Shown: piece by piece, positions 25,207 to 27,916 of the stretch | Numbering within the stretch: the first letter of the stretch is position 1 | Layout: every line of letters begins with the position of its first letter | NCBI GenBank assembly: GCA_045586685.1 | Contig: JAZNAU010000021.1 | Span: forward strand, 1-37,481 | Reading direction: 5' to 3' | Length of the DNA: 37,481 nt | Source: Clostridia bacterium | GTDB lineage: Bacteria; Bacillota; Clostridia; HGM11514 | Translations under genes and position numbers: made by a program | Notes under the pieces: generated by a model | The model's input: only the letters and a program-made list of their open reading frames with translations | Database searches by the model: none | Told to the model about the DNA's origin: nothing

Positions 25207-25225
25207 TGAGAAAGGCGAGATGATC

Positions 25226-27055
25226 ATGTGTTCTATTTGCGGAATGATAGAATTTGAACAAAAGAATAGATTGGACGCGGATGTACTGAATCAAATGGGC
25301 ATGACCATGAAACATCGGGGGCCTGACCAGACCAATGCGTTTTATAGTGAATTTGCCATGCTTCATCACAATCGGTTGTCCGTTATTGACCCTGAAAACG
25401 GGTTGCAACCCATGACAACAGAATGGCAGGGAAAGAAGTATACCATTGTGTACAACGGAGAGCTGTACAATACCTCCGAGCTTAGAGATGAGCTGTCCCG
25501 TTTAGGGGTGATTTTTAAAACCCACTGTGATACGGAGGTTGTGCTTTATTCTTACATTTTGTTTGGAGAAAAGAGTCCTGAAAAAATGAACGGCATCTTT
25601 GCCTTTGGAGTGTATGACGAGGGAAAGAAACAGCTCTTTTTGGCACGGGACAGAATGGGAGTAAAGCCTCTTTTTTACACCATGGCAGACTCAACCTTTT
25701 TATTTGCTTCTGAAATCAAGGCACTTTTGGCTCACCCTTTCGTTCAACCAAAAATTGACCATGTGGGACTATGGCAACTCTTATACTTAACCCCTGTTAC
25801 CATCGGGGGTAGCGGTGTGTTCCAAAATATTTTTGAAGTAAAGCCAGGATACTGCGGGGTATTTTCAGAGCAAGGTCTTCGCCTTCGCCCTTATTGGACA
25901 CTGGAAGCAAAGGAATGTCACGATACTCCTCATGAGGCGGCAATGCGGACACGGGAATTGTTGACAGATGCTATTTCCCGTCAGTTGATCAGCGACGTGC
26001 CTTTATGCACCTTCTTATCGGGAGGCTTGGATTCTTCGGTGATTACCTCGGTTGCCGCAGGGGAATACCGCCGTTATGGAGAGAGTTTATCCACCTATTC
26101 TTTTGAGTATGAAGGAAATAAAGAAAATTTTCAAAGCTCTCTGTTTCAGCCACAGGGGGATGATGAATTTGCTGTTTTTTTGGGAGAATGGTTGGGTACT
26201 TCCCATACCGTGTTGACCGCACCTACCTTGTCAGTTGCTCAAAAGCTTTTTGATGCTACTCTGGCACGGGATATCCCGGGTCAGGCGGATATTGACTCTT
26301 CGCTCCTGTATTTTTGCTCCAAGGTCAAGGAGGGGCATACAGTGGCATTGTCAGGAGAATGTGCGGATGAAATTTTTGGCGGATATCCTTGGTTTTACCG
26401 TCCGGGAATGTTATATCGTGATTTCTTCCCTTGGATTCATAATCCGAAGGCAAGGATTCAGTTGTTTGATGATAAAGTAGTAAAAGGGGAGGAAGGGTAT
26501 GATTATATATCCACCGTTTATCAGCAAAGTATTCGCGAATGTCAGACGTTGGATACCGATTCCTTTGAAGACCAGACCGCAAGAGTGGCAACCTGGCTTT
26601 CTGTCAGCTACTTTATGACCTCTTTGCTGGAACGAAAAGATAGAATGAGTATGGCAAACGGACTGGAAGTGAGGGTGCCTTTTTCAGATCACCGAATTTT
26701 GGAATATGTGTACAATGTGCCGTGGCGGATTAAGTTTGAAAATCAGACGGAAAAAGCACTCCTACGCAATGCTATGGCAGAATTTTTGCCTGATAAAATT
26801 TTGTATCGTAAAAAGAGCCCCTATCCCAAAACTCACAATCCTCTGTATCAAAAAACTGTTTCGGAACTCCTTCAGAAACGACTTGAGAAAAAGTCTGGGG
26901 TACTGCATCAACTGTTGGACACGAAAAAGCTTCAGGAGATGCTGGAGTCGGAAAATACCACATGGTTTGGGCAGTTAATGGCAACCCCGCAACTCATTGC
27001 ATGGCTCATTCAATTTGACTTCTGGTTTGAGCAGTATCATGTTCAAATCGTATAA
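25226..27055 (+). CDS. asnB: Asparagine synthase (glutamine-hydrolysing), AsnO-like
   Basis: N-terminal Met-Cys nucleophile, HRGPD, YNGELYN, LSGGLDSS, SGECADEIFGGYPWF, RKDRMSM, RKKSPYP. Confidence 0.92.
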   Translation: MCSICGMIEFEQKNRLDADVLNQMGMTMKHRGPDQTNAFYSEFAMLHHNRLSVIDPENGLQPMTTEWQGKKYTIVYNGELYNTSELRDELSRLGVIFKTHCDTEVVLYSYILFGEKSPEKMNGIFAFGVYDEGKKQLFLARDRMGVKPLFYTMADSTFLFASEIKALLAHPFVQPKIDHVGLWQLLYLTPVTIGGSGVFQNIFEVKPGYCGVFSEQGLRLRPYWTLEAKECHDTPHEAAMRTRELLTDAISRQLISDVPLCTFLSGGLDSSVITSVAAGEYRRYGESLSTYSFEYEGNKENFQSSLFQPQGDDEFAVFLGEWLGTSHTVLTAPTLSVAQKLFDATLARDIPGQADIDSSLLYFCSKVKEGHTVALSGECADEIFGGYPWFYRPGMLYRDFFPWIHNPKARIQLFDDKVVKGEEGYDYISTVYQQSIRECQTLDTDSFEDQTARVATWLSVSYFMTSLLERKDRMSMANGLEVRVPFSDHRILEYVYNVPWRIKFENQTEKALLRNAMAEFLPDKILYRKKSPYPKTHNPLYQKTVSELLQKRLEKKSGVLHQLLDTKKLQEMLESENTTWFGQLMATPQLIAWLIQFDFWFEQYHVQIV

Positions 27056-27119
27056 TAAGGGGTCGGTGCATTTTTCCACAACCCGTTAAAAAGGGGATAT
27101 CGTATTAAAAATAATTTTG

Positions 27120-27148
27120 TTGCATAAAGAGAGAAAGTATGGTATAAT
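27120..27148 (+). promoter_or_regulatory. Sigma-A promoter with no downstream protein gene
   Basis: TTGCAT-17-TATAAT with extended -10 TG. Confidence 0.75.
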
Positions 27149-27152
27149 GAAA

Positions 27153-27312
27153 TTGCGATACAAATTCATTTTTAAAGATCAGAGAATTCATTTGGTAAAA
27201 ATGCGTTCCCTGTTTTCCTCATACTCTGATCGGTTGGATGGATTTGTGTCGCAGCAGCGGGGAAACGTGTTTTTCGGTGCGTTGTCCTTGGGATAACGCA
27301 CCTTTTTATTTT
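27153..27312 (+). ncRNA. Putative structured small RNA of unknown family
   Basis: Starts at the predicted +1; 18-bp stem 27153-27170/27237-27254, inner 8-bp stem, ends in an intrinsic terminator; no ORF with an RBS. Confidence 0.55.
27276..27312 (+). terminator. Intrinsic terminator
   Basis: GGTGCGTTGTCC-TTG-GGATAACGCACC + TTTTTATTTT. Confidence 0.85.
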
Positions 27313-27412
27313 GAGTTCCTTTGCTGCGATGTAAAATTCATATTTTAGGAAAGGAGGAGAGAAAGGTAGTTGCATTGACTGAAAAATGCAAACTCCTTGT
27401 TGCGACACAAGT

Positions 27413-27443
27413 AAAAAAGGGACTGGCGTGTTGCAGTCCCTTT
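27413..27443 (-). terminator. Terminator of gltX-yfcE (possibly bidirectional)
   Basis: AAAAAAGGGACTG..CAGTCCCTTT. Confidence 0.75.
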
Positions 27444-27451
27444 CAACTATT

Positions 27452-27916
27452 TTAACATTCTATGATTGCCCCTTTTGCAATGCCCTTTTCGATTTCAATT
27501 ACACCGTAGGAGGCACGTCCGTCACGAGGACGGGAAATACTTCCGGGATTTAAGAAAGTGACCCCGTCTGTTTCTGTCAGAAGGGAACGGTGGGTGTGAC
27601 CGAACAGGACGAAGGAACAACCCTGTTTTTTTGCCTTGCTGAGCATTTCCTGTCTTGTCATGGAATGACCATGAGTACAGAGCATTCTGACTCCGTCAAC
27701 TTCCCCTTGTGTAATGGTAGGCAAGGGGGAAAACCAATCATTGTTTCCCTTTACAGACAGAAAGGGAATTTGGGGATAAAACCCCTGTAATTCCTCACAG
27801 TCTGTTACCGTATCTCCCAAATGAATCACCATAGAAATTTCCCCAAGTCCCGGCAATACCCGAAGACAAGGGTGGATGTTGCCATGGGTATCTGAAAAAA
27901 TCACAATCCGTTTCAT
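27452..27916 (-). CDS. YfcE-type metallophosphoesterase
   Basis: SDTHG, HLGD, VKGNND, THGH, FGHTH, NPGS motifs. Confidence 0.92.

Follow-up and report, generated by a model that had tools for sequence, protein, structure and literature searches.

The RNA described here is encoded in a 37,481-nt stretch of DNA from a Clostridia bacterium (contig JAZNAU010000021.1), which was analyzed at its full length and is referred to below as the window. It lies in a gap between two convergent genes, and the gap itself is free of genes, as an earlier note on this sequence had stated. The left flank is formed by an asparagine synthase gene (25220-27055, + strand), and on the right a gene for a Metallophos_2 phosphoesterase (27452-27916, - strand), followed by a glutamyl-tRNA synthetase gene, faces it. 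A promoter of the sigma-A type (27120-27148, + strand) points into the gap; it comprises the -35 element TTGCAT (27120-27125), a 17-nt spacer and the extended -10 element TGgTATAAT (27140-27148). The earlier description of this promoter as near consensus holds for the -10 hexamer and its TG extension, both of which are perfect, but not for the -35 element, which agrees with TTGACA at only 3 of 6 positions. For this reason, the promoter was absent from the consensus promoter scan. At the other end, an intrinsic terminator (27276-27312, + strand) pairs 27276-27287 with 27291-27302 and continues into a U-tail at 27303-27312. The terminator had been called strong, and the scan indeed listed a stem of 12 pairs (27276-27302), 7 of them G-C, with a T-run after it. 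Promoter and terminator enclose an RNA of about 160 nt (27153-27312, + strand), the transcript of which, judged from the promoter geometry, probably starts within the first 1 to 3 bases of its closing stem. A search for a plausible open reading frame 3′ of this RNA found none, the next gene being the convergent phosphoesterase gene with its own terminator. The hairpin of the latter (27415-27444) looks bidirectional and was listed by the scan on both strands.

Folding of the interval 27153-27312 on the + strand gave a minimum free energy of -60.6 kcal/mol (z = -6.6), which was not equaled by any of 200 shuffled sequences; the - strand of the same interval reached -42 kcal/mol (z = -4.5). In the minimum-energy fold, all elements of which are given for the + strand, a closing stem (P1) joins 27153-27171 to 27235-27253, a pairing that is also indicated by covariation in the family described below, and an inner stem (P2) joins 27177-27183 to 27225-27231. 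A weak local hairpin at the apex (P3, 27184-27208) partly sequesters the A-run of a strand that we term C (27197-27212), which consists of this A-run plus UGCGUUCCCUG. Strand C is complementary to a strand in the 3′ tail, C′ (27258-27274), which carries a U-run at its end, and the two can form a pseudoknot of 16 pairs with one bulge, as read by eye from the sequence. All three pairings that had been proposed for this RNA, namely, the closing stem, the inner stem and the pairing of the loop with the tail, are therefore present in the window. C′ additionally serves as the 5′ strand of a candidate antiterminator hairpin (27258-27290), in which 27258-27269 would pair with 27278-27290, excluding both the pseudoknot and the terminator. 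The pairing energy of the pseudoknot was calculated as -17.9 kcal/mol, or -20.5 kcal/mol with the linker included, and that of the terminator as -19.2 kcal/mol. P3 (-2.7 kcal/mol) and the antiterminator (-9.3 kcal/mol) are weaker in the window than the respective family means of -6.9 and -12.5 kcal/mol.

A search of the whole window against Rfam 15 at gathering thresholds returned no match, and a search of positions 27000-27480 with E values up to 10 gave only chance-level matches of at most 17.6 bits. No Rfam family, 6S RNA included, reached its gathering score, which agrees with the previous reading that the RNA bears no hallmark of tmRNA, RNase P, SRP, T-box or the common riboswitches. The same search of 20 loci holding family members (E up to 0.01) yielded three tRNAs and one subthreshold match to Gut-1 RNA, both located elsewhere than the RNA. 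The Gut-1 match (35.5 bits, the gathering score being 50; E = 0.003) was found in the window's own genome on contig C47 (L068:2036-2104, - strand), some 350 nt past the second copy of the RNA. Full-text literature searches found no description of this RNA. A catalogue of unnamed candidate RNAs from the human microbiome (PMC8040213) contained no assignable match in its main text and five of its seven supplement files, while an unnamed entry is possible in files 6 and 7. The family is thus apparently undescribed.

Searching the own genome at the DNA level revealed a second copy, 68% identical, on another contig, and the search of 60 relatives gave an ortholog with 93% identity in a sister species, along with more weakly matching copies in a number of other families within the class. 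A covariance model was built from an alignment of eight family copies; P1 and the terminator were modeled, and the pseudoknot was not. This model identified 7 copies in the own genome of 1.55 Mb and matched 41 of the 150 scored genomes of the same class, with up to at least 15 copies per genome, these counts being floors (18 candidates were scored per genome). Outside the class, 147 genomes of the same phylum contained no match, and in a phylum-wide sample of 151 genomes matches were restricted to the window's own genome and one genome of the same class. A scan with the 22-nt motif of the apical loop, using one genome per species, returned at least 120 stretches, and the model matched at each of the 80 motif loci that were examined with their flanks, giving a total of 84 matches. 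Judging by record titles, nearly all carriers are MAGs of uncultured gut bacteria assigned to Clostridia, Oscillospiraceae, Acutalibacteraceae, Ruminococcaceae or Eubacteriales, from samples of goat, deer, buffalo, rabbit and human origin. One family member (121.5 bits) was located on a 3.8-kb contig binned as Methanobrevibacter (NZ_JAZQIJ010000163.1), which is most likely a misbinned Clostridia contig. Tandem arrangements were seen at 10 or more loci, and every unit in them carries a promoter and a terminator of its own. Plasmid matches were absent, and two unannotated fecal contigs labeled "Bacteriophage sp." carry one member each. Six motif matches in IMG/VR were rejected as members, as all of them represent one phage coding gene. 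Judging by these matches, phages and plasmids are not the main carriers of the family. The label "orphan transcription unit" given to the locus is not supported in the sense of an isolated unit, as the window copy is one of seven in its genome, and hundreds exist in related genomes.

A fragment of a second family member is present in the window itself, just past the phosphoesterase terminator (27382-27410, - strand), and comprises the P1 3′ strand, the linker and C′. Over 30 nt it shares 93% identity with the matching part of the copy on contig C25 of the same genome and scores 36.2 bits, compared to a maximum of 26.3 bits in 50 shuffles; the covariance model alone was not significant at this position (14.2 bits; E = 0.35). 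The fragment suggests a past rearrangement between family copies.

Base pairing was analyzed on 41 members for a structure consisting of P1, the pseudoknot and the terminator. Standard pairs filled 95.3% of the cells, compared to 38 to 54% when the 3′ partners were slid by 1 to 3 columns. Changes on both sides were observed for 32 of 39 pairs versus 18.4 in shuffles, and none of 500 shuffles scored as high. All 14 modeled pairs of P1 (95% of cells paired) and 10 of the 11 terminator pairs displayed such changes. The pseudoknot showed them in 8 of 14 pairs (6 of 10 and 2 of 4 in its two helices), with approximately 94 to 96% of cells paired across the family. As the pseudoknot had been left out of the model, its counts were not fitted to the structure. 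The pairing of loop and tail had been interpreted as either a pseudoknot or an alternative fold, and both parts of this proposal gained support: compensatory changes in relatives were found for the pseudoknot, and alternative partners of its strands proved complementary as well. Likewise, the comparison with related Clostridia that the earlier note had proposed yielded homologs with compensatory changes in their helices. The stem at the P2 position was long but variable in length and sequence in all 41 members folded. Positions conserved in at least 90% of 100 distinct members are found almost entirely in P1, C, C′, the 5′ arm of the terminator (T), a short CAA linker and a UUU run, the last two of which are able to extend the pseudoknot. 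Nearly all conserved positions thus sit in alternative helices, which accounts for the similarity in sequence of C, C′ and T among members. As judged by these comparisons of sequences, the window RNA is a genuine structured RNA and belongs to a large family without an Rfam entry.

G-U pairs were more numerous than A-C combinations in P1 (40 versus 9), in the pseudoknot (60 versus 6) and in the terminator (74 versus 1), with totals of 174 versus 16, so the G-U bias that had been noticed on the plus strand is real. This excess argues for selection acting on the RNA of the + strand. It also weighs against the idea that the repeat functions as DNA, i.e., as a miniature mobile element or a recombination site, which we consider very improbable. 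The multiple copies, their inverted and tandem arrangements, the truncated fragment on the opposite strand of the window and the members on the two fecal contigs labeled as bacteriophage would be in keeping with such an element. However, the ratio of 174 to 16 applies to one strand, the promoter is placed at a fixed distance, and the terminator lies within the unit. Furthermore, the members have diverged with compensatory changes, unlike the near-identical copies of mobile elements, and no plasmid was matched.

The strands of the pseudoknot each have a second possible partner. In the RNA, C′ and its U-run are followed at once by T, and C′ can pair with T in almost all members (84.7% of cells, compared to 29 to 65% when slid). 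Column-wise covariation of this antiterminator was at the level of shuffles (5 pairs changed on both sides versus 4.5 expected); therefore, its support comes from the conserved complementarity and from the energy-swap test described below. With the terminator loop included, the antiterminator comprises 11 to 17 pairs with a mean of -12.5 kcal/mol, while the terminators average -16.2 kcal/mol. In several members, its pairing continues into the linker and into terminator loops of unusual length, an extension that the terminator alone would not explain. On the 5′ side, P3 arises in most members through pairing of the A-run of C and the next 3 to 6 bases with C′′, a U-rich strand located upstream, and a conserved GGUA before the A-run covaries with C′′. 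A T-box-like sensing of tRNA ends via UGGU in the loop was considered and rejected, as these bases covary within the P3 stem and are not invariant. When strands were swapped between members, the native combinations were more stable for the pseudoknot (-16.6 versus -12.1 kcal/mol; none of 1,000 permutations as good), the antiterminator without the terminator loop (-7.2 versus -5.9 kcal/mol; none of 1,000) and P3 (-6.9 versus -4.9 kcal/mol; none of 2,000), the significance of these tests being inflated by relatedness among the sequences and the energies leaving out the entropic cost of the pseudoknot.

The position of the family members relative to promoters and genes was analyzed next to their structure. 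Among 100 members with enough upstream DNA, 93 showed a -10 hexamer with 5 or 6 of 6 consensus positions, 77 had a TGn extension, and in 70 the -10 element ended exactly 4 nt before P1. This fixed spacing indicates that promoter and RNA form one module, with transcription starting inside the first bases of P1. On the 3′ side, an open reading frame with a ribosome-binding site began within 150 nt of the terminator in 24 of 41 members and within 120 nt in 64 of 84 members. Among 40 additional copies, taken from four genomes rich in copies, 33 had such a frame within 200 nt; the rule used for these counts was crude, with some calls doubtful and several real open reading frames missed. The family therefore resembles an attenuator in having a terminator in the 5′ leader between promoter and gene, an arrangement that is lacking at the window copy. 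The proposal of a "standalone sRNA or switch" is thus supported with respect to the switch, while standalone describes only the window copy and a minority of others, most copies being 5′ leaders. A leader peptide was rejected as an explanation: open reading frames of at least 10 codons with a Shine-Dalgarno sequence occurred inside the RNA in just 28 of 101 members, at scattered positions.

The downstream genes are diverse and mostly monocistronic, and no coherent functional theme was found among them. One class encodes AbrB-like proteins with a Cys-rich C-terminal tail, a name that rests on weak subthreshold matches to a 37-residue fragment. A second class consists of proteins of 77 to 96 amino acids without a Pfam or NCBIfam match at cutoff. 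A homolog search for this family returned close homologs only, a protein atlas gave no usable match, and an AlphaFold model predicted a three-helix bundle with a pLDDT of 67, too weak for a structure search. Further classes are an acidic helical family of 38 to 65 amino acids, Cys-rich small proteins, SLOG/DUF1273-like proteins and XRE regulators (both named by eye), lipoproteins, and large secreted repeat proteins or LRR surface proteins. Of the seven copies in the own genome, four are located before three AbrB-like genes, with a tandem pair at one of these genes, and two before paralogous genes for proteins of 84 and 96 amino acids, while the window copy is followed by no gene. Paralogs of one small-protein family, each behind its own leader, were observed within single genomes (G140, G128, G067, G134 and G087); G140 contains five or more proteins of 38 to 65 amino acids of the "M-D/E-N-Y-K-E-M-Y" type, and several LRR surface proteins occur in G128 and in G067. 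This arrangement suggests that leader and gene duplicate together as cassettes.

Such units could also be understood as sibling trans-acting small RNAs, with the terminated 160-nt RNA as the product, acting, for example, through its CU-rich loop or its U/A-rich strands, and read-through being incidental. Every unit, including both members of a tandem and the orphans, has a strong promoter of its own, orphan copies exist, the window copy is under purifying selection (see below), and the tandem promoter-terminator units resemble those of LhrC or Qrr. Nevertheless, we regard this explanation as rather unlikely for the family as a whole: most copies are followed by a ribosome-binding site and start codon, often within 10 to 30 nt, which leaves no room for a separate promoter, and the conserved complementarity of C′ to the terminator 5′ arm, extending into the terminator loop, would be purposeless in a pure small RNA. 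Both readings, as leader and as small RNA, can be true together.

Considering the leader position and the alternative pairings together, the family probably represents promoter-proximal leader RNAs that act in cis as termination switches by strand exchange. The proposed switch is a chain of five segments: C′′ (the 5′ strand of P3), C (the A-run plus approximately 10 nt), C′ (the 3′ tail), and the terminator arms T and T′. In the first state, C would be held by C′′ in P3, leaving C′ free to pair with T once T emerges; the antiterminator C′:T would then prevent terminator formation, and RNA polymerase would read into the gene. In the second state, C and C′ would form the pseudoknot, T would remain free, the T:T′ terminator could form, and a transcript of about 160 nt would be released. 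According to the family means, P3 plus antiterminator amount to about -19 kcal/mol and the pseudoknot to about -17 kcal/mol before T′ has been made, and the second state is much more stable once T′ is present. As the two states are near in energy before the synthesis of T′ and the second is far stronger afterwards, the outcome would be decided kinetically. The decision would fall during the short time it takes for C′, the U-run that follows and T to be released from the polymerase, and any stabilizer of one of the helices could shift it. A possible toehold for C′ is the unpaired CUCU segment of C. We infer both the regulatory use of this toggle and its default state; the effector could be a small molecule, a protein that stabilizes one of the hairpins, or the kinetics of transcription.

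If a small molecule or second messenger were the effector, it would bind the pseudoknotted or the P3 form and set termination for a regulon of surface and small proteins, making the family an orphan riboswitch class. This is conceivable, though we give it less than even chances. The layout is aptamer-like, with P1 closing a domain that the pseudoknot links to a terminator/antiterminator platform, and many copies per genome precede surface proteins, lipoproteins and small regulators, gene classes reminiscent of second-messenger regulons; one GGDEF protein is encoded in the genome. On the other hand, almost all conserved bases are explained by alternative Watson-Crick pairing, so that few unpaired ones are left for a binding pocket and none is obvious, the long P2 stem is freely variable, and the downstream genes give no metabolic clue.

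The same doubtful standing applies to a protein-dependent attenuator, in which an RNA-binding protein would stabilize the antiterminator or the anti-antiterminator, with the pseudoknot setting the default. Proteins of the BglG/LicT type stabilize antiterminators (RAT elements), and PyrR stabilizes an anti-antiterminator. In agreement with such a factor, the antiterminator is conserved across distant genomes in its sequence and not merely in its pairing, and its mean energy of -12.5 kcal/mol falls short of the -16.2 kcal/mol of the terminator, as would be expected if it had to be stabilized by a factor. Leader termination driven by a protein is established for the infC leader and L20 of Bacillus subtilis (PMC1865079). 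However, no candidate protein was found, and the sequence conservation would equally follow from the need of each strand to fit two partners.

The window copy departs from the typical leader in its energetics as well as in its lack of a gene. It is the third most pseudoknot biased of the 41 members, the first being its ortholog in the sister species. This energy bias did not differ significantly between members with and without a gene (23 versus 15; P = 0.13). As the energies of the window copy favor pseudoknot and terminator, it should terminate nearly always, and its most likely behavior under these calculations would be constitutive termination yielding a stable RNA of about 158 nt. Compared to the ortholog in the sister species (G001), the RNA is 94.3% and the promoter 93.9% identical, while the flanking genes reach 84 to 88% and the upstream spacer reaches 71%. 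The better conservation of the RNA than of the flanking genes indicates that it is maintained by selection despite lacking a gene. It could have a role of its own or be a conserved relic, with the purifying selection favoring a role. The RNA may act in trans, e.g., on sibling leaders that partly match its C and C′ strands.

Taking these observations further, we tentatively suggest, with the reservation that it may well prove otherwise, a new orphan class of riboswitch or riboregulator. In it, one global signal would control, via the five-strand toggle, a regulon comprising as many as 15 monocistronic genes in a genome, or more, with gene-less copies possibly acting in trans on sibling leaders. 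Such a reading would cover surface proteins, lipoproteins and small regulators in uncultured gut Clostridia of the Oscillospiraceae type. A structured RNA that is widespread, displays strong covariation and has no Rfam entry is rare. Roughly one in four of the Clostridia genomes sampled carries the element, in many copies, almost all carriers are uncultured bacteria of the animal and human gut, and the genes that it seems to gate encode surface protein families and small regulators. It thereby offers a testable entry to a regulatory signal in these bacteria, and as a compact natural RNA switch of five strands it is a possible model for cotranscriptional strand exchange.

Riboswitch expression platforms and attenuators share with the model proposed for the family the mutually exclusive helices, the promoter-proximal position directly before a gene and the sequestration of the antiterminator 5′ strand by an upstream element, here through C:C′, which would let the terminator form. 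Anti-antiterminator logic is likewise used by leaders of the PyrR type. The family differs from these systems in that its putative anti-antiterminator is a pseudoknot of 15 to 17 bp to the apical loop of a long hairpin, in that the loop strand has a third, local partner (P3), resulting in a chain of five strands, and in the heterogeneity of the downstream genes. 6S RNA is similar in its rod-like hairpin with paired 5′ and 3′ ends; however, the family RNAs are shorter, occur in multiple copies as leaders, contain a pseudoknot between loop and tail and have no Rfam match. Clusters of sibling small RNAs, such as LhrC, Qrr and the csRNAs, consist of homologous units, each with a promoter and a terminator. 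The presence of several units per genome, some in tandem and with their own promoter and terminator, is common to these clusters and the family, but most units of the latter abut a ribosome-binding site and a gene and contain a candidate antiterminator as an alternative. The c-di-GMP riboswitches (RF01051 and RF01786) are multicopy leaders in Clostridia that precede genes of the surface or adhesion type. Neither in sequence nor in structure did the window and the 20 loci match them, and the architecture is different; the search for RF01051 was silent in the own genome, which encodes a single GGDEF protein, and in the control genomes alike, and is therefore uninformative. In the infC leader of B. 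subtilis, termination is driven by ribosomal protein L20, and this leader of about 200 nt is comparable in that terminator use is set by a change in leader structure (PMC1865079). There, a single operon is autoregulated by its own product via rRNA mimicry, whereas in the family the same leader is placed on dozens of unrelated genes per genome.
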